From assembly GCA_964612055.1 (NCBI GenBank), contig CAZTBI010000001.1, positions 228,824-292,823 of the forward strand: a stretch of DNA of 64,000 nucleotides. The letters run 5' to 3'. The DNA comes from an uncultured Bdellovibrionales bacterium. Its GTDB lineage: Bacteria > Patescibacteriota > Minisyncoccia > Moranbacterales > UBA1568. This document shows, piece by piece, positions 19,272-31,921 of this stretch. The notes below the pieces were generated by a model. It searched no databases, was not told the DNA's origin, and worked only from the letters and a program-made list of their open reading frames with translations. The number at the start of each line of letters is the position of its first letter. Position 1 is the first letter of the stretch. Both the position numbers and the translations under genes were made by a program.

Positions 19272-20177
19272 TTATTTTACTGATACTTTTGCTGGGCGGA
19301 TCACTTTGCCTCCAAGTCGGAAACCATTTTGGAGTACTTTCGCTATCACATGCTTTTCTGCTTCTTTCTTCCCTTGCCCGTCCGTAGCCTCGGCAGAGGA
19401 GGGTTCGTTTTCTTGACTGACGGCTTCATGAATAGTCGGATCAAATGCGTCCCCTTCTTTTGCTTCTATCACTTCGACACCGTTCTGCTTTACTACGTCT
19501 TCCAACTGTTTCTCGATGTACTGGATACCAACGACCCAAGGGCTCTCTTTCTGTTCCGGTGGGACATGCATGGTCGCGGCACGGAAGTTATCGAGAACTG
19601 GGATGATATCGAGAACCAATTTTTCTATCAGATAGCCGCCAAGTTCTTTCTGTGATTCCTGCTGACGCTTTTTGTAGTTTTCAAAGTCCGCCTGTATTCG
19701 CTTGAGATCTGTCAGATATTCTTCCTTCTGTATATGAGTTGTAGCAGAACGGATAAACTCCTTTAGCCATGATTTATACTCTTTTCCGGATTCTATCTCC
19801 TCGACCGTCTTCCAATCGTATTCAGAATGTTCATCACTGATATTGATTTCTCCACCTTTGAAAATAGTGAGGTAGGCGAATACCGCTCGGTATGGGTCGT
19901 TGTTTCGGTCTGAATCAAGTTTCATGTGACATCCAGCAACCGCACCCTTGAGGTCAAATTCTATCTCTTCTCCTAATTCTTCTTTAATTTCACGAAACAG
20001 AGCCGCTTCCACATTTTCTCCTGTATCTACTCGACCCCCGGGAAGCTCCCATGGGCCATACTTCTGATGATACTCTGAATCCTCAAACGCATCCTTCACC
20101 AAAAGAAACTTCTTATCGCTTGGTCGGTACAGAATTATTTTCTGACTGAGTTGGAAATGTTCGTAATTTTTGTTCAT
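19272..20177 (-). CDS. grpE: Fusion protein: N-terminal Nudix hydrolase domain plus C-terminal GrpE nucleotide-exchange factor
   Basis: Residues about 1-150 carry a perfect Nudix box [25 protein letters not shown]. Residues about 155-301 are GrpE-like (DFENYKKR helix, [14 protein letters not shown] tail). It sits between hrcA and dnaK. Confidence 0.8.
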
Positions 20178-20181
20178 ATTT

Positions 20182-20937
20182 TTATCCGATGAAATATACG
20201 GCGTTACTGGTTACTAAAATTATTACGAGTGAGGAGCCGAGCATCTTGCGCATGTATTCAATGAGGGATTTGTTCTTGGCGTAGTCCATGCGCTTGGGAC
20301 CGATGATAGCGAGCATGCCGCGTCCTTCGTCTGTCTGATAGGGAGCCACAATCATGGAACAGTTATTGATACCACTGATAGGGTTTTCATTACCGATAAA
20401 AATACGTGTTTCACCATCTTTCAATTTCAGCATGATACCGTCTACTTTTTCATCGAGCGAATCCAGTGTTTCTACCAACTGACAGAGCTCATCCATTTCT
20501 TGAAATTCTGGATTGTCGATCAGTTCCCGAATTCCGAAATCGTAGTATTCATCTTTATCAACGATACCTGAGACGGCGAGGTTACCAGAGAGGGATGAGA
20601 GGAGCTTGGCGGTACTGCGACCCAGGCGCATGTGCTTGGCTTTCAGAGTCAGGAGTTCTTTTTGCAAACGACGTTGATCTTCGCGTGACAGATCCTGATC
20701 CCCCATCATCTCCTCAACGTAGATCCGATACCCTTGGTCAGTCGGGATACGTCCGGCAGAGACGTGCGGTTGATACAGATACCCCTCTTCTTCCAAGGCT
20801 GCCATGTCGTTTCGCAACGTTGCCGAGCTTACTCCGAAATCATAATGTTCAAGCAGTGCCTGTGAACCAACTGGGATCGCTGTCTTGGTGTACAGTTCGA
20901 CGATCGCAGAAAGAAGTTGTTTTTGACGATCATTCAT
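20182..20937 (-). CDS. hrcA: Heat-inducible transcription repressor HrcA
   Basis: HrcA-like sequence. Start set at MNDRQKQLL. The ORF-track start at 20979 is a GTG inside the CIRCE element. Confidence 0.85.
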   Translation of the reverse strand: MNDRQKQLLSAIVELYTKTAIPVGSQALLEHYDFGVSSATLRNDMAALEEEGYLYQPHVSAGRIPTDQGYRIYVEEMMGDQDLSREDQRRLQKELLTLKAKHMRLGRSTAKLLSSLSGNLAVSGIVDKDEYYDFGIRELIDNPEFQEMDELCQLVETLDSLDEKVDGIMLKLKDGETRIFIGNENPISGINNCSMIVAPYQTDEGRGMLAIIGPKRMDYAKNKSLIEYMRKMLGSSLVIILVTSNAVYFIG

Positions 20938-20958
20938 AAAGTTTTCTATTACAACTTC

Positions 20959-20999
20959 ATTATATAAAGTGATTAGCACTCTGTCAAGTAGAGTGCTAA
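20959..20999 (-). promoter_or_regulatory. CIRCE operator TTAGCACTC-N9-GAGTGCTAA, with the -35 TTGACA inside the spacer and a -10 TATAAT (17-nt spacing) for the hrcA-grpE-dnaK operon
   Basis: Read directly: CIRCE at 20973-20999, -35 at 20982-20987 and -10 at 20959-20964 on the minus strand. Confidence 0.85.
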
Positions 21000-21064
21000 T
21001 TAGGAAGCATCTGGCATTTTTAGGTATGAAAAAAGCCCGGAGGATAGCGATCCTTTCGAGCTTG

Positions 21065-21250
21065 TCAGCGATTCATCAAAGACGGCTTCTTGCTATCCAC
21101 GCTGTTGTGGGCATAGCAAGGAACGCGCGCCGGGCAAGTCTCACAGAACATACTGCCGACGTGTTGCTTGGCATCTTCGATTGGTATCCGCATACCGACG
21201 CCATTTCGTTTGGCAAGACACATCACGGTTGGAACAAGAGGCACTTCCAT
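21065..21250 (-). CDS. Small Cys4 protein (61 aa), paralog of the 21443-21619 product
   Basis: GAGGAA SD that incorporates the stop of the upstream ORF. Cys spacing C-x24-C-x2-C-x5-C is shared with its paralog. Confidence 0.45.
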   Translation of the reverse strand: MEVPLVPTVMCLAKRNGVGMRIPIEDAKQHVGSMFCETCPARVPCYAHNSVDSKKPSLMNR

Positions 21251-21254
21251 TGTT

Positions 21255-21428
21255 TCCTCATTTCTTGTTGCGCATCCGGTGTGGAACCTTACGGCGGTTG
21301 TTTTTCTTCCGCCGCGACGTCGGGTTGTTGGAATGACTCGATCCCCTTCGACTCAAGGCCGGTTCAGCAGAAGCAGCCAACGCCATTGCCCAGAGCAATA
21401 CAGGGAGCACGAGGTAATCTTTCAGCAT
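21255..21428 (-). CDS. Small secreted, highly basic peptide (57 aa; signal peptide ending ASA, then an Arg/Lys-rich 36-aa mature part)
   Basis: AGGAGA SD that incorporates the TAG of the upstream ORF. Translation: MLKDYLVLPVLLWAMALAASAEPALSRRGSSHSNNPTSRRKKNNRRKVPHRMRNKK. Confidence 0.4.
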
Positions 21429-21442
21429 TTCAGTGTCTCCTA

Positions 21443-21619
21443 TTTCTCAGTCGAGGGAGGCTGGTTGCATGATTGCCTCACAGGACAATGTTCACACACC
21501 CAACCACCATTGTTGTACTTTCGGGCTTTTCGCAGCTTGATGTGTTCTCCGCGTCCCCTGTTGGCAACTTGGCAGTAGACCAGAGTTCTACCGCCAGCCC
21601 TGATGACAATAGTCTTCAT
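21443..21619 (-). CDS. Small Cys4 protein (58 aa)
   Basis: AAGGAG SD 7 nt upstream. Translation: MKTIVIRAGGRTLVYCQVANRGRGEHIKLRKARKYNNGGWVCEHCPVRQSC. It is absent from the ORF list because it is under 60 aa. Confidence 0.45.
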
Positions 21620-21656
21620 GATCTACTCCTTCTCAATCAAAAAAATGAAGCACTCC

Positions 21657-22046
21657 TCAGGAGAGGCCGAACTTGGCGAGGAAGGCAGCTTCTTCCGCCC
21701 GAGACCTCTCCTTTGCTAGCTCGTCCAGAGCCATTGAACATTCAACCCCGCATACGCCCGACCAGAGACGCTTGACTGGATCGTTCGGCTTTTTGCCGTC
21801 ATCACGATACCCCCACGGGAGTTGAAACGTCTTCTTGCAGCCTGTAACAGGCTGAGCAAGGCAGGTAAGAACCGGCAGATGATCATGTTCCGTACCACGA
21901 GCCTCCGTCGGCCGTTTATAGACGATGGTTTTTTCGGGACGCCTCTCTCTTTGCTCATCCTCATCACTGTCTACGAGATGCGGCAGGGCTCCACCGCGCA
22001 GCCTCTTGAAATCGTCCAGCGACGTCAATTTCGCAGGTCTGGCCAT
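21657..22046 (-). CDS. Hypothetical protein, high GC, with a CxxxC pair
   Basis: 129-aa ORF in an operon with yidD and the small-protein module. Confidence 0.4.
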   Translation of the reverse strand: MARPAKLTSLDDFKRLRGGALPHLVDSDEDEQRERRPEKTIVYKRPTEARGTEHDHLPVLTCLAQPVTGCKKTFQLPWGYRDDGKKPNDPVKRLWSGVCGVECSMALDELAKERSRAEEAAFLAKFGLS

Positions 22047-22074
22047 TGCTTTCCCCTTGGTTCGTTGTTAAAGA

Positions 22075-22326
22075 TCACGACAATGGGTCGTACCCACCGT
22101 CGTTCCATGGATGGCAGCGAAGGACACGTTTGCATCCTATCCAGCTTCCTCGGAAAACTCCATAGCGTTCGATCGCCTGATAGGAGTACTCTGAGCACGT
22201 CGGATAGAATCGGCAGAAGCGCTCGCCGAAAATCTTACCTATGATCCCATGGTCAAAGGACAGGGTTTTTTGATAGAGACGAATAAGCCCAAGTACGATG
22301 CTCTTCCACATATCGTCATTCTCCAT
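22075..22326 (-). CDS. yidD: Membrane protein insertion efficiency factor YidD
   Basis: RFYPTCSEY...[15 protein letters not shown] motifs. Confidence 0.75.
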
Positions 22327-22399
22327 CTTTCAGGCGAAAAGTCAACTCTAAGAAGAATTTTATGATATAATTCAGAGGAAATAAAAACCGAAAGAAAAA

Positions 22400-23340: not shown

Positions 23341-23961
23341 TCACTGAAGCACAATCGAAGAGCCACCCCCTTCTTCGCCCTCTTCCATTTCTTCAGAATC
23401 ATCAAGATAGAACTTCAAGGTGCCTGAGAGCTTCGGGGAAAGTTCGACCTTATAGAAATCAGCCATCCCCGCGATTTGAAAAGCGATTTCTTGACCTATC
23501 TCCGTTCCGGCCTCGACAGCTTCCTCCAAGGCCTCTACACTGCCCATCACAAACTCGATAAGGGTCTCTCGATCGATTTTGAGACGTGTCCATTCCGCGA
23601 GATCGGACCTACGGAAACGAAGTATGAGATCTGGGTAGTTCCTTAGATCGCGGACAAGTGTCACAAACTCGAAATACTCAGCGAAGCATTCTTGGCTTTT
23701 CTGGTCATTTTCTGCCTCCGCCGCTTCGTACACCATTTGCTGCATCTGTGCCGCATACGCTACCTGATCGAACGCTTCCCCGCCCCTTCGGAACTTCTTC
23801 AGCCGTTCAAAATTCTTCTCAATCAAAGCGGTCAATTCTATGGCAGAAGGAAGCCCCTCAACCACCTCTTCCCCCTCTTCCATTCTTTCCAAGATTCCAT
23901 AGCAGGAAACTATTTCCTTGAAAACAGTCACCATGGTTTCCAAGGTTTTCCACGCATCCAT
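23341..23961 (-). CDS. Hypothetical protein; paralog of the 24099-24722 product
   Basis: Shared blocks LAEWTRLKIDRETLIEF / LHEWATLTVDRETLYPF. Confidence 0.45.
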   Translation of the reverse strand: MDAWKTLETMVTVFKEIVSCYGILERMEEGEEVVEGLPSAIELTALIEKNFERLKKFRRGGEAFDQVAYAAQMQQMVYEAAEAENDQKSQECFAEYFEFVTLVRDLRNYPDLILRFRRSDLAEWTRLKIDRETLIEFVMGSVEALEEAVEAGTEIGQEIAFQIAGMADFYKVELSPKLSGTLKFYLDDSEEMEEGEEGGGSSIVLQ

Positions 23962-24098: not shown

Positions 24099-24722
24099 TC
24101 ACGAAGTGATTTCCCGAAGCCCCTCTCGTGAGCGGAGCCAAATCGGCGAACACCCTTGATCGTGAGCGGTACTCATGTACCAGTCAACCAACCGACGCAG
24201 CCCGCTCGAAAGGTTGATACCGAAGAGATCGGCCGTCAGAGTGATGAGTTCGGCATTCACGTGAGCGTCCTCCGGGTCAGTCGTCGTCGTTTCGTAGAGC
24301 TCAGCCGCTGTTGCATTCAAACTTCCAATCAACGTCTCAGCAAACGGGTAGAGAGTCTCTCTGTCCACCGTCAGCGTCGCCCACTCATGCAGACCAACAG
24401 AACGGAAGAGGGCCACCAAATACGGGTAATGCTCGAGCATGAACACTTGGCACTGAAACCGGCAGTACTCAGTGAAAATCTGCGTCATGTCGTCAGCGCT
24501 TTCAGCCTCAGCCAGTAGCTGATGAACCTTCTTTGAATACTCTTTCATCCTGAAGACCCCAGTCCGCCCACGAAGCTGAGTCATGGCTTCCAAACGCCGA
24601 GAGATCCTGTGTTCAAGCTCGGTCATGGTGTAGCCAACGTTTCGGCCATTGGCCTGAAGTCGCCGGTAATGCTCAAGGTGAACGATTTGACTGAAAATAC
24701 TCGGAAGCAGATTCATTTCCAT
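24099..24722 (-). CDS. Hypothetical protein (paralog pair with 23341-23961)
   Basis: 207-aa ORF with its own terminator. Confidence 0.45.
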   Translation of the reverse strand: MEMNLLPSIFSQIVHLEHYRRLQANGRNVGYTMTELEHRISRRLEAMTQLRGRTGVFRMKEYSKKVHQLLAEAESADDMTQIFTEYCRFQCQVFMLEHYPYLVALFRSVGLHEWATLTVDRETLYPFAETLIGSLNATAAELYETTTTDPEDAHVNAELITLTADLFGINLSSGLRRLVDWYMSTAHDQGCSPIWLRSREGLREITS

Positions 24723-26246: not shown

Positions 26247-26308
26247 GTGTCCTGAAAAATGTTGAGGGCCGGAAGTCGCGTAGACTCCCGGCCCCTGTTG
26301 TTGGTCCG

Positions 26309-26491
26309 CTATTCGCTGATGATTTCCTCATTGAAACCCTCGGGGGCTCCGGAGTAATGGATCATGGCTTCAGCCATGGGCAGATTATGAACCGGTGGCG
26401 ACTCTTCACGTTGCCGTTTCAGCCCGGGAAACAGCCCGAGCAAGGCAACGAAAAAGGCAATGGCTCTTTGCTTCGAAATCTTCAGCTTCAT
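26309..26491 (-). CDS. Small membrane/secreted hypothetical protein (60 aa)
   Basis: GAGGAGA SD 6 nt upstream, an N-terminal hydrophobic segment, and a terminator hairpin downstream. Confidence 0.45.
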   Translation of the reverse strand: MKLKISKQRAIAFFVALLGLFPGLKRQREESPPVHNLPMAEAMIHYSGAPEGFNEEIISE

Positions 26492-26645
26492 GCTGATTCT
26501 CCTCTTGGTATAGGGGTTTTTGATCTGCCCGTGAATTTCACGTACAGATTCTTATTATACTCCTTTTTAAGGGTTTTGTCAATGGTGCCTAAGAAGCTAT
26601 CCACATATCCCCCATTGCTGGCTCTCTTCCAAGGAGCACGCTATA

Positions 26646-28665: not shown

Positions 28666-28703
28666 TTACAAGCATCGTTTTGAACCAAAGCGAAGGAGAC
28701 AGA

Positions 28704-28876
28704 GATGCCAGCAGTTGTTCCAGCATCAATCCCGGTTCCACTGGGAGATCCGCCAATCGACTACGACAGCCTTACCGAGGAAGAACGAAAGAAAGCCCTC
28801 CTCGCCCTTCAAGAAGGGACCGCCTATCCGGAGAACATCTTGCCTCCCACTGGCGTCTCACTTGCCAGCGAGTAAG
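28704..28876 (+). CDS. Small hypothetical protein (57 aa)
   Basis: GAAGGAGA SD. Followed by two terminators. Confidence 0.4.
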
Positions 28877-28951
28877 TCGGCAACCATGTGCAAAAAAATC
28901 AAGAGCGGACCCGAAGCCTCAGGTCCGCCTTTTCATTTTCTTTATTTTAGA

Positions 28952-29295: not shown

Positions 29296-29373
29296 ACGCC
29301 AAAAATGAGCCATTTAGATACTTGCCTATTGTACCGGATTTCCCGAGCCCTGTCAAACCTGCTACCTTTCTAT

Positions 29374-30015
29374 TTAATTTTCTTCTTTTTGGACCTTTTT
29401 CAGAATAAGAACTTCTTGCCCAGTCTCTGGCTCAAGAACAAATTCAGATTCCAGTCCTAAATTGTCTACAAAAGCTTTTATTTTGTCCATTTCTCGAATC
29501 TGGTACTCTGGGTCAGAGGGACTCTGTAAGTCTAATTTAGCTTTTCTAAATGGACCAACACGGAACGTTCCTCCATCTTTCAAAACTCGGATGGCTTCTG
29601 GAAGCCACCTTGGATAATTTTCTAGTGAATATGTAGTAACAGCAAAGAGCGAAAGGACTTCATCAAAGCTCTCATCCCCGAAAGGAAGCTGCTCGGCAAT
29701 TCCGGCAACCACCAAAGGAGACTCAGGCAATCTTCCTCCAACGAAAGCTTTTATTTTTTCTTTTCGACTTGGCTGAAGGAACTTTCTTTGTTTTTCGTCA
29801 GCGTAATCAGGACTCATGGATATTACATCCGCTTTAATCCCTGCTTCTTTCATATCCCTTGCAAATCTTGCCTCTGGTCCAGCCCCCAGATCTAAGACTA
29901 CTTTTCCTTCCAAAGAATTTCTTTTAAAAGCAAGAAATCGCTCGTAATCATCAATACCTCTTCCTTTTTCTGGACCCTTCTCAATCGATCCTTTCCACGC
30001 TGGAGTCTCAAACAT
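29374..30015 (-). CDS. Class I SAM-dependent methyltransferase
   Basis: VLDLGAGPE motif I. Start chosen to avoid overlap with alaS. Confidence 0.6.
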   Translation of the reverse strand: MFETPAWKGSIEKGPEKGRGIDDYERFLAFKRNSLEGKVVLDLGAGPEARFARDMKEAGIKADVISMSPDYADEKQRKFLQPSRKEKIKAFVGGRLPESPLVVAGIAEQLPFGDESFDEVLSLFAVTTYSLENYPRWLPEAIRVLKDGGTFRVGPFRKAKLDLQSPSDPEYQIREMDKIKAFVDNLGLESEFVLEPETGQEVLILKKVQKEEN

Positions 30016-30019
30016 ACTA

Positions 30020-31921
30020 TTATTGTAAGATCGCTTTGATCCGGCGGACACCGGCCGAAGAGGCTTCTTCCTTGATAATCTTAAACTTCCCAAAGAGGGC
30101 TATATCAGCCGTCGTCGTGACATGTGGCCCACCGCAGAGTTCACGGGAATAGACCTTACCATCTGGTGCCTCTACCTGGTACACCGTCACTTTATCTGGA
30201 TATTTCTCCCAGAAACTTCCTTCGACGCCAGCGGCTTTGGCTGCATCTTTGTCCATTACTACTGTCCCGACTGTCGCCTGAGCAGCGATCGCCTCATTTA
30301 CGTAAGCTTCCACACGATCTAATATTTCTCGTGAGACTTTTTCTCCATAGGTGAAGTCGAACCGAGTGCGTTCTTCCGTAATATTGGATCCTGCTTGATG
30401 AACATCTGGTCCAAGCTCTTTGCGCAGTGCCGCAAGCATAAGATGGGTAGCTGTATGAAGCGCCGTCACCTTGACACTATGATCTGCTAGCCCGCCCTTG
30501 AATTTCCCAGCACTCGCCGTGCGAGAGAGGTCCTGATGTTTCTTAAATTCCTCACGAAAGGCCGCTTCATCAATAACCACTCCTTGCTCCTTGGCAAGTT
30601 CTTGAGTCATTTCAAGAGGAAAGCCGTAGGTAGATAGAAGATCGAAAGCATCCTTTCCAGTAAGAGCACCACTCTCTGTACGGCGCCCCAATTCTTTCAA
30701 CCCCTTCGAAAGCGTAGTTCGAAATTTTGTTTCCTCCTGAATCAGAGCTTCTGTAATAAAAGGTTTTTTCTCTGACAAGTTTGGATACGCTTCTTTGTAT
30801 GAACTAATAAAATCTTCTGCTAGAGCTGCCGCAAAGGACGTTTCTACTCCAAGAGCATCACTGTAGCGAATAGCACGACGAATCAAGCGGCGAACAAAGT
30901 AACCCTGATCCTTATTGGATGGCAAAACCCCATCTCCGATCAAGAAAATAGCAGCCCGCACATGATCCAAGACAACTCTCATAGCATAGGTAGTCCGTTC
31001 ATCGCTTCCATATGTTTTCCCAGAAAGTTTCTCTAGTGCTGTACGTGGGATATCGAAAAGTGGAATCATGAAGACATCAGGATTGTCTCGCAAGGCAGCA
31101 TCTATCCGTTCCAGTCCACCACCAAAGTCGACGTTTTGCTGAGCAAGTTTTTCAAAACCGGTAGCGGTCTTTTTGTACTCCATGAACACGTTGTTGCCGA
31201 TTTCCATGAAGCGGCCGCAATCACAATTCACATGACACGCTTCATCTTTCCACTGAGAAACTTCGTGAAGTCCTCGCTCAATACCGAAATCCCAGAACAT
31301 CTCCGTGTCTGGTCCGCCAGGTTCACCAACCGGCATATTCCCTGGTACACCAGCGCGACTCCACCAGTTCTTCTTTTCTGAATAGTAAAAGATGTGTTCC
31401 CCTTCACGCATACCATCTTGCTCTGGATTCTCCCCAATAGTCACCTCGATACCAACTTCTTTGAAAAGTGCCTGCCATTTTTCGGCTGACTCGGTATCTT
31501 TCGGAATGCCAAGCTCATCATTGCCACGGAAACAGGTAAAGTAGAGCTTCTTGGGATCGAGACCAAGCTCTTTCGTCAAAAACTCCCACATGAACGCGAT
31601 TTGCTCTTGTTTGAAATAATCACCAAAAGACCAGTTGCCGAGCATTTCGAAGAACGTGGTGTGACGATTGTCTCCAACCTCTTCAATGTCCTGACTACGG
31701 AAACACTTCTGCGAATCAGTGATACGCGTTCCCAACGGATGCTTCTCACCGAGAAGATACGGTACAATTGGCTGCATCCCAGAGCCAGTGAAAAGCGTGG
31801 TCGGGTCATTTTCTGGCACAAGCAAAGCAGAGGGAACAATCACGTGCCCTTTACTTTGGAAAAATTCGAGATACTTCTGTCGGATGTCGTTCGTATGCAT
31901 ACCCGGTGGTAATACTTTCAC
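30020..31921 (-). CDS. alaS: Alanyl-tRNA synthetase, short form (633 aa, no C-Ala domain)
   Basis: Class II catalytic core and an editing-domain HxxxH (HTATHLM), ending ...VRRIKAILQ. Confidence 0.85.
   Translation of the reverse strand: MKVLPPGMHTNDIRQKYLEFFQSKGHVIVPSALLVPENDPTTLFTGSGMQPIVPYLLGEKHPLGTRITDSQKCFRSQDIEEVGDNRHTTFFEMLGNWSFGDYFKQEQIAFMWEFLTKELGLDPKKLYFTCFRGNDELGIPKDTESAEKWQALFKEVGIEVTIGENPEQDGMREGEHIFYYSEKKNWWSRAGVPGNMPVGEPGGPDTEMFWDFGIERGLHEVSQWKDEACHVNCDCGRFMEIGNNVFMEYKKTATGFEKLAQQNVDFGGGLERIDAALRDNPDVFMIPLFDIPRTALEKLSGKTYGSDERTTYAMRVVLDHVRAAIFLIGDGVLPSNKDQGYFVRRLIRRAIRYSDALGVETSFAAALAEDFISSYKEAYPNLSEKKPFITEALIQEETKFRTTLSKGLKELGRRTESGALTGKDAFDLLSTYGFPLEMTQELAKEQGVVIDEAAFREEFKKHQDLSRTASAGKFKGGLADHSVKVTALHTATHLMLAALRKELGPDVHQAGSNITEERTRFDFTYGEKVSREILDRVEAYVNEAIAAQATVGTVVMDKDAAKAAGVEGSFWEKYPDKVTVYQVEAPDGKVYSRELCGGPHVTTTADIALFGKFKIIKEEASSAGVRRIKAILQ

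Follow-up and report, generated by a model that had tools for sequence, protein, structure and literature searches.

The cysteine spacing C-Xn-C-X2-C-X5-C is the [4Fe-4S] ligand spacing of WhiB1 (C9/C37/C40/C46; PMC6282962), the same 1+3 spacing holds a [4Fe-4S] cluster in Dna2/AddB (PMC3439918), and the N-terminus of NUBP1/Nbp35 holds a [4Fe-4S] cluster with CX13CX2CX5C (PMC8007109). WhiB-like (Wbl) proteins are defined by four invariant Cys, the motif G[V/I]WGG, and a basic C-terminal helix; they are 81 to 139 residues long, have a helical fold, and are found only in Actinobacteria (PMC6282962). Here, we report three adjoining small genes, A, B, and C, two of which (A and C) encode mini-proteins with this kind of cysteine spacing, in a 64,000-nucleotide stretch (the window) of an assembly named uncultured Bdellovibrionales bacterium (GCA_964612055.1; contig CAZTBI010000001.1, positions 228,824 to 292,823). 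The genes lie on the minus strand between yidD and the heat-shock operon hrcA-grpE-dnaK. As judged from sequence comparison, A-B-C is an orphan set of fast-evolving genes that occurs only in Moranbacteria, upstream of their heat-shock operon, and the A/C family and its operon appear previously undescribed in this lineage of the candidate phyla radiation (CPR).

Like A and C, the Wbl proteins (PF02467; WhiB1, PDB 5OAY) are small, carry four invariant Cys as C-Xn-C-X2-C-X5-C with a CxxCP(V/A)R segment, and occur as several paralogs per genome. A basic segment accompanies both: Wbl proteins carry it as a C-terminal helix or AT-hook, and here it is a separate protein (B or another basic-tail protein). 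Unlike the longer actinobacterial Wbl proteins, the members of the A/C family are 56 to 63 aa long (the domain, ~55 to 65 aa) and come from CPR bacteria, and what they share is a motif resemblance, not membership. The "iron staple" of AddB/Dna2/Cas4 and the Nbp35/NUBP1 site have the same 1+3 [4Fe-4S] ligand spacing but lie within large enzymes or scaffolds, whereas in A and C the motif is the whole protein and the cluster is a prediction. Small Cys4 zinc-ribbon and treble-clef proteins (YacG, ribosomal Zn-ribbon proteins) are alike in size, in their four Cys, and in basic character; the 2+2 arrangement (C-x2-7-C ... C-x3-C) of ORF0, an open reading frame (ORF) just upstream of A, does look like this class, whereas A and C have one N-terminal and three C-terminal Cys and match no zinc-ribbon family or structure. 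Leader-containing cationic bacteriocins and Cys-rich precursors of RiPPs (peptides made on the ribosome and modified after translation; SCIFF/ranthipeptides) share with the module its tandem short ORFs, the leader-like N-terminus of B, and the Cys-rich C-termini of A and C. The module, however, has no maturase, transporter, immunity gene, or double-glycine leader, and A and C form a conserved domain that has partners and occurs in fusions, unlike typical precursor peptides.

Cys4 mini-protein family

A (C16/C42/C45/C51; C-x25-C-x2-C-x5-C) and C (C11/C36/C39/C45; C-x24-C-x2-C-x5-C) are paralogs (BLASTP, 34% identity over 38 aa, E=3e-6), and both belong to an orphan family of "Cys4 mini-domains" with two subtypes. 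The initial annotation, made from the sequence alone, had recognized this paralogy correctly, and the Cys spacing that it gave as identical is nearly so, x25 in A against x24 in C. When 27 proteins from the yidD-hrcA gap of Moranbacteria metagenome-assembled genomes (MAGs) were aligned (alignment A1), only the four Cys were invariant, as they also are in an alignment of 16 relatives; besides these, A1 conserves a Gly, an Ala, and a hydrophobic residue preceding Cys1. The C-type consensus is IPLxxPVVMCLAxxNGxGxRIPI...GSxFCxTCxARxPCxxxH, and the A-type consensus is VYCQAxNxGRG...ARKxNxGGxxCExCxxRxxC. Relatives of C, 33 to 58% identical, occupy the same position in related loci L006, L008-L011, L013, L016, L049, and L059, and the A-type relatives are P0014, P0016, P0018, and a gene at 90..275 of L059.

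In the family architecture, a first, hydrophobic strand runs up to Cys1 and is followed by a G-x-G turn, another strand, a short helix that holds the conserved Ala, and C-x2-C-x5-C near the C-terminus; the AlphaFold model of C is beta-beta-alpha-beta-alpha (predicted local distance difference test [pLDDT], 67.6). Both A and C carry the proposed family pattern, h-h-h-C-x-A-x3-G ... (I/V)x(I/L) ... A ... C-x2-C-x5-C, directly upstream of hrcA. The zinc-ribbon-like character first described is not supported, as the Cys are arranged 1+3 (C...CxxCx5C) without two CxxC knuckles, and the AlphaFold models are beta-beta-alpha and matched no solved fold in a fold search. By sequence composition, a hydrophobic leader is absent from both A and C, which argues for a cytoplasmic location. 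A is strongly basic (isoelectric point [pI] 10.2, net charge +9), and C is mildly basic.

A hidden Markov model (HMM) of the family scores A at 67 bits and C at 80 bits. In 592 kb of related DNA translated in all six frames (the window and 62 loci), every match of the core-family HMM stood directly upstream of hrcA and on its strand; A and C were the sole matches within the window. The family has 14 representatives among 1.84e9 proteins and, in two further searches, 7 and 10 clusters among 5.8e9; the recoverable contexts (L058, L059, and L061) are again yidD/...-module-hrcA. A, B, C, and ORF0 had no significant match in Pfam, NCBIfam, PHROGs, or PADLOC, and ORF A alone had no relatives in the genome collection, so that the species is not among the GTDB representatives. 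Sequence and profile searches of the PDB with A, alignment A1, and the ORF0 alignment A4 gave chance-level matches only. JGI metagenome contigs and IMG/VR viral contigs gave no matches in pattern scans with the C-type (A6) and A-type (A8) alignments, the broader family alignment A5 being too divergent for such scans, and a literature search for small cysteine proteins of Moranbacteria found no papers.

Coding evidence

Coding was assessed against five Logan contigs of the same species (L001-L005), which are 98 to 99% identical to the window over up to 10 kb, and against L059, a related species carrying the same A-B-C layout. A differs from L001 by 3 synonymous and 1 nonsynonymous changes (ratio of nonsynonymous to synonymous differences per site [pN/pS], 0.10), B from L002 by 4 and 1 (0.08) and from L001 by 3 and 6 (0.61), and C from L002 by 19.8 and 12.2 (0.18). 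In the comparison with L059, the ratios are 0.49 (A), 0.45 (B), and 0.39 (C). The annotated frames of the three genes thus lie at 0.08 to 0.6, and the off-frames lie near or above 1. These patterns, in sister strains and in the sister species, support coding in all three frames and indicate purifying selection on A, B, and C.

L059 repeats both the gene order (A-type, B, C-type) and the two junctions, TAGGAG with 11 nt and TGAGGAAA with 7 nt, and its proteins are 41% (A), 67% (B), and 57% (C) identical to those of the window. The initial annotation would have given up its proposal had the three ORFs and their coupling layout not been conserved in related genomes; gene order, spacers, and junctions are all conserved in L059. 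Its statement that such short genes are invisible to standard ORF calling was mistaken, since A, B, and C are all called as genes in a public protein collection.

Proposed operon structure

Gene coordinates are based on the minus-strand reading of 20700..22100 and an ORF listing, and all features in this section lie on the minus strand. The probable first gene, and start of the transcription unit, is yidD (22075..22326; membrane protein insertion efficiency factor; Pfam PF01809, E=1.6e-27), which stands beside the module in 39 related loci and is preceded by a weak sigma-70-like site at 22345..22318. ORF0 (21657..22046), a fourth small gene of the unit that is missing from the initial annotation, encodes a Cys4 protein of 129 aa, has an AAGGGG Shine-Dalgarno sequence, and starts 28 nt past the end of yidD. 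A (21440..21619; 59 aa, A-type) starts 37 nt past the end of ORF0 and has its own AAGGAG Shine-Dalgarno sequence 7 nt before the start. The spacer between A and B is 11 nt (21429..21439), and the TAG stop of A (21440..21442) stands within the AGGAG Shine-Dalgarno sequence of B (...GAGAAATAGGAGACACTGAAATG, of the form TAGGAG...ATG). B (21258..21428) encodes 56 aa that, from the ORF reading and composition, comprise a hydrophobic segment and a polybasic tail. The spacer between B and C is 7 nt (21251..21257), and the TGA stop of B (21258..21260) stands within the GAGGA Shine-Dalgarno sequence of C (...AAGAAATGAGGAAACAATG, of the form TGAGGAAACAATG). C (21065..21250; 61 aa, C-type) is followed by an intrinsic-terminator-like hairpin and U6 (21029..21063; RNA fold, -13.8 kcal/mol, z=-1.6) at the module end, a hairpin kept in L001, L002, and L059. 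Outside the module, the boundary is formed by a controlling inverted repeat of chaperone expression (CIRCE) with a promoter (20959..20999; inverted repeat, 20973..20999; perfect CIRCE, consensus TTGACA-17-TATAAT).

This layout agrees with the initial annotation in its three minus-strand ORFs, in a Shine-Dalgarno sequence on each, and in the upstream stop codons built into those of B and C, all of which can be read directly from the sequence; of the lengths given there (58, 57, and 61 codons), that of C is correct, and A and B have 59 and 56 aa. A shared operon with yidD, as first proposed, is plausible: yidD, ORF0, and A-B-C lie on the same strand with the short gaps given above, no terminator was found between yidD, ORF0, and A, and the hairpin and U6 come only after C. 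Because these are followed by the CIRCE and promoter for hrcA, the unit yidD-ORF0-A-B-C would be separate from the heat-shock operon. A-B-C itself is a tightly packed unit of real, probably co-translated small genes.

GC content is 52.4% for A-C and 53.5% for ORF0-C, compared with 47.6% for the window; A-C is in the top 8% of 555-bp windows, and ORF0-C is in the top 1.1% of windows of its size. The excess, which had been presented simply as high GC, is real but modest. Rfam finds only three tRNAs in the window, leaving a structured-RNA explanation of the GC-rich stretch without support.

ORF B and possible partners of the Cys4 domains

B has a hydrophobic stretch at residues 6 to 20, A-S-A at 19 to 21, and then 35 residues with 13 K/R (37%), ending in NRRKVPHRMRNKK (pI 12; net charge, +12). 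The early description of a signal peptide ending in ASA thus caught the hydrophobic stretch and the A-S-A, and overstated a mature part that it took to be 36 aa with about 40% Arg/Lys. L001 and L059 keep the 15-residue hydrophobic core, followed by A-S-A or A-A-A. For the tail, the only significant match is the 11-residue motif NRRK.P.RMR, which is present again in L012.

In 10 loci, an ORF with 7 to 13 K/R/H in its last 25 residues ends 2 to 20 nt before the start of a C-type gene. This ORF is B-like in the window, L001, L002, and L059, and F1-like in L008-L011, L013, and L061, F1 being a leaderless protein of ~90 to 131 aa that ends ...YGPxHHRRWPxxRSNRPHTRNR. The F1/C-type junction is often TAGGAG, with an 11-nt TAGGAG junction in L009-L011. 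Because the pre-C gene of most relatives has no hydrophobic leader but does have an Arg/His-rich tail, the conserved part would be the basic tail rather than export.

The Cys4 domains themselves are found joined in several ways. In P0013 (from L061, where it lies directly upstream of hrcA) and in P0015, one polypeptide carries a C-type domain and then an A-type domain. At 4686-5216 of L006, an ORF0-like domain is fused to a C-type domain, followed by separate C-type and A-type genes; in P0004, the N-terminus of the F1 family is fused to a C-type domain; and C-type and A-type genes adjoin in L006, L060, and L062. The "dedicated small partners" of the initial annotation fit the P0013 and P0015 fusions and the repeated occurrence of a basic-tail gene beside a C-type gene.

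Proposed function

We tentatively favor the reading that yidD-ORF0-A-B-C is a lineage-specific, fast-evolving small-protein operon, in which a metal-binding cytoplasmic A·C pair and its basic-tail partner B form a polyanion-binding regulatory or adaptor complex. Each Cys4 domain would hold one metal center by its four invariant Cys, with the 1+3 spacing favoring [4Fe-4S] and Zn as the alternative. Since C-Xn-C-X2-C-X5-C is a [4Fe-4S] signature in several unrelated proteins, an Fe-S cluster is a reasonable prediction for A and C. The fusion of C-type and A-type domains in one polypeptide, at least twice, suggests that A and C work as a cytoplasmic hetero-pair. B would provide an Arg/Lys-rich tail that acts with the C-type protein, in near-stoichiometric amounts because the stop codon of B lies within the ribosome-binding site of C; in this species, the hydrophobic N-terminus of B probably tethers it to the membrane or takes it across. 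With A and B so strongly positive, polyanion binding would be the most likely activity. The complex may then bind nucleic acid or an acidic protein surface, its metal center being structural or redox-sensitive, and it would act as a small regulator or adaptor, not as an enzyme, toxin, or antibiotic.

Five points weigh against this reading. Translational coupling of A-B-C is judged from junction geometry only. The tails of B and F1 are alike by eye only, and BLASTP of B against the ~131-aa F1 proteins gave no alignment, so the relation of B to F1 rests on position and composition. B resembles a protein with a cleavable signal peptide, given the A-S-A and its counterparts in L001 and L059, and export of its tail is possible. 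The AlphaFold models are of moderate to low confidence (pLDDT, 67.6 and 59.7). Distant members of the family have C-x2-C-x2/3-C, and one has C-x2-C-x7-C; x5 is thus not strictly required, which weakens the Fe-S-specific argument and keeps Zn in play.

Many small genes of CPR bacteria are unannotated, and A-B-C is a clean, comparatively validated case: an orphan family with a fixed genomic address, in which fusions predict who binds whom and the Cys signature predicts Fe-S or Zn. If the Fe-S prediction is true, the family would add a cluster-binding domain of ~60 residues to those known to stand alone, and perhaps a means of redox sensing for organisms whose regulatory repertoires are minimal. 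Otherwise, the locus is still an example of strain-level exchange of small-protein cassettes and of gene callers preferring an antisense ORF over real small genes.

Alternative explanations

The main alternative, which we consider rather unlikely, is that the yidD-hrcA gap is a conflict or variation islet, in which small Cys-rich and basic proteins are rapidly exchanged cassettes (for phage defense and counter-defense, or for the host interaction of an episymbiont) and the metal sites are merely structural. The synteny CorA(-)/yidD(+)...hrcA(+) is kept in 39 species-level loci, and the gap within it is 319 to 1699 bp long. In about half of these loci, the gap encodes between one and three small proteins that have a single N-terminal Cys and CxxC...C at the C-terminus, and gap contents are differing mixes of at least five small-protein families. 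Such variability, the module GC above the genome background, and the frequent gene fusions and fissions all speak for an islet, as does the divergence between strains that are otherwise 98 to 99% identical over 10 kb. ORF0 (C62, C70, C99, and C103, 2+2, with a helical C-terminus) belongs to a family with the pattern C-x2-7-C ... P(Y/W)G ... G(T/V)C-x3-C (four invariant Cys in the 11 members of alignment A4) and has no significant Pfam or PDB match. Between the window and L001/L002, its first 6 and last ~12 codons are identical and its interior (~21694..22039) is unalignable, with both alleles keeping the Cys4 pattern, an appearance that suggests a mosaic or a cassette-like allele. The C of L002-L005 shares 75% identity with that of the window (pS 0.61, pN/pS 0.18), and A and B are almost unchanged there. 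This C allele would be old and under purifying selection, which argues for import by recombination and not for rapid positive selection, and the alignments show what we read as allelic cassette exchange between strains at the module. Against an islet, the module has no effector enzyme and no PADLOC, PHROG, or viral match, its position between housekeeping genes is fixed and vertically inherited over HrcA identities of 66 to 95%, and A, B, and C are under purifying rather than diversifying selection.

Other parts of the window and of the related gaps vary as well. Three stretches of the window (~26303..26598, ~28700..28949, and ~29356..30031) are not alignable to the 98%-identical L002, where at least two of the three coincide with small unannotated ORFs (45 to 76 aa); the genome may carry several strain-variable small-gene islets. 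The gaps of L008-L014, L058, and L061 hold two more orphan families, both absent from this window and without a Pfam match, namely F1 and a ~74-aa Cys-rich family with the pattern ...TWCxR...NLRHASWSFR...C...PCPNCDLCQRV...NRPxH.

A second, distinctly unlikely alternative has B exported by Sec as a cationic peptide with antimicrobial or host-directed action, and A and C serving as its dedicated immunity, chaperone, or maturation partners, as in a bacteriocin-, toxin-immunity-, or RiPP-like unit. The CPR lifestyle makes secreted effectors plausible, the locus is strain variable, and the hydrophobic core with A-S-A or A-A-A precedes the K/R-rich tail also in L001 and L059. In a more distant Moranbacterium, an ORF directly after yidD (L044, 4628..4912) encodes a classical signal peptide and a polybasic peptide (28% K/R) and may be a B analogue. 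The N-region of B (MLKD), however, has no net positive charge, and the flank after the hydrophobic stretch is polybasic, so that the positive-inside rule would favor an N-out/C-in anchor. Nor do the relatives support the "secreted" peptide of the initial annotation, as most of them have a leaderless gene (~90 to 130 aa) before the C-type gene, alike only in its Arg/His-rich tail. A and C, which are soluble, basic Cys4 proteins without a leader, do not resemble known immunity proteins. The module has yidD, CorA, CysS, HrcA, NUDIX-GrpE, and DnaK as neighbors, and within ~5 kb there is no ABC transporter, peptidase or other protease, radical-SAM enzyme, lanthionine or other maturase, or membrane immunity protein; PADLOC gave no hits, and pN/pS indicates purifying selection. 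The antimicrobial, immunity, and RiPP readings therefore have no support, as every accessory component is missing and they conflict with the leaderless basic-tail relatives.

More speculative, and quite improbable, is a sensor role, in which A and C would be a minimal, convergent counterpart of the Wbl-type sensors outside Actinobacteria: two [4Fe-4S] mini-domains would pair and, with the basic tail of B, bind nucleic acid or the transcription machinery in a redox-, NO-, or O2-dependent manner, and might modulate the adjacent hrcA-grpE-dnaK stress operon of an ultra-small CPR symbiont. If true, this would be one of the smallest Fe-S sensor modules known to stand alone, divided among three co-translated genes.

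It is very doubtful that A and C are true, truncated homologues of the actinobacterial Wbl [4Fe-4S] transcription factors. Their x24/25-x2-x5 spacing matches the x27-x2-x5 of WhiB1, and CEHCPVRQSC and CETCPARVPC resemble the Wbl CxxCPV...C, with marginal matches to WhiB, the one Pfam name to recur, in 2 of the 27 members (E=0.066 to 0.095). The PF02467 score of 13.7 bits (E=0.095) is, however, below the 23.6-bit cutoff, and the matches cover CxxCPVRxxC only; the PDB profile search with the family returned no Wbl chain; and hhalign of the family against WhiB1 (a sequence whose residue numbers agree with PMC6282962) gave 2.2% probability and left Cys1 unaligned. G[V/I]WGG and the C-terminal helix are absent from A, C, and their relatives, which end 8 to 16 residues after Cys4, and the GGW of A stands before Cys2 and is not equivalent to that motif. 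The predicted core is beta-beta-alpha, whereas Wbl proteins are helical. Wbl membership is largely refuted by these results.

Finally, we give hardly any credence to the idea that the ORFs are nonfunctional, either as chance or decaying frames in a GC-richer spacer or because the real gene is a long antisense ORF (21168..21578 or 20969..21472 on the plus strand): a gene caller did pick a 149-aa antisense ORF instead of B and C in four sister contigs (L002-L005), the antisense frames are open in L059 as well, and B has more nonsynonymous than synonymous changes from L001, but the substitutions track three separate sense frames, with B in a frame other than that of A and C, the frame of the 136-aa antisense ORF over B has pN >= pS, the four Cys are invariant across deep divergence, the Shine-Dalgarno sites and junction geometry are kept in L059, and the Cys4 domain is reused in fusion proteins. 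With the substitution signal following each ORF's own frame, we reject the antisense explanation.

Neighboring genes

Downstream of the module, the CIRCE-bearing promoter drives hrcA, a NUDIX-grpE fusion, and dnaK. The CIRCE (TTAGCACTC-N9-GAGTGCTAA) is the only one in the 64 kb and has the -35 hexamer TTGACA inside its loop, followed by a consensus -10; all five same-species Logan contigs end within or just past it. HrcA (20182..20940, minus strand) is short (~251 aa) with a hydrophobic tail (...GSSLVIILVTSNAVYFIG), possibly a membrane anchor, that is also found in L058, L059, and L061. GrpE (19272..20177, minus strand) has an N-terminal NUDIX hydrolase fusion (Pfam NUDIX, E=3.8e-15; GrpE, E=4.4e-36), and the same fusion is called in L058. 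Two adjoining ORFs of 206 and 207 aa (23341..23961 and 24099..24722, minus strand) have no Pfam match and are kept beside CorA/CysS in the sister contigs.

The HrcA relatives that are 66 to 95% identical all come from Candidatus Moranbacteria/Moraniibacteriota MAGs, which places the window in a Candidatus Moranbacteria genome of the CPR/Patescibacteria. Among L006-L048, many MAG records are titled "uncultured Bdellovibrionales bacterium"; their loci are syntenic with those of Candidatus Moranbacteria, their HrcA proteins fall in the same 66 to 95% identity range, and the "Bdellovibrionales" label of those third-party annotation (TPA) assemblies is probably wrong.

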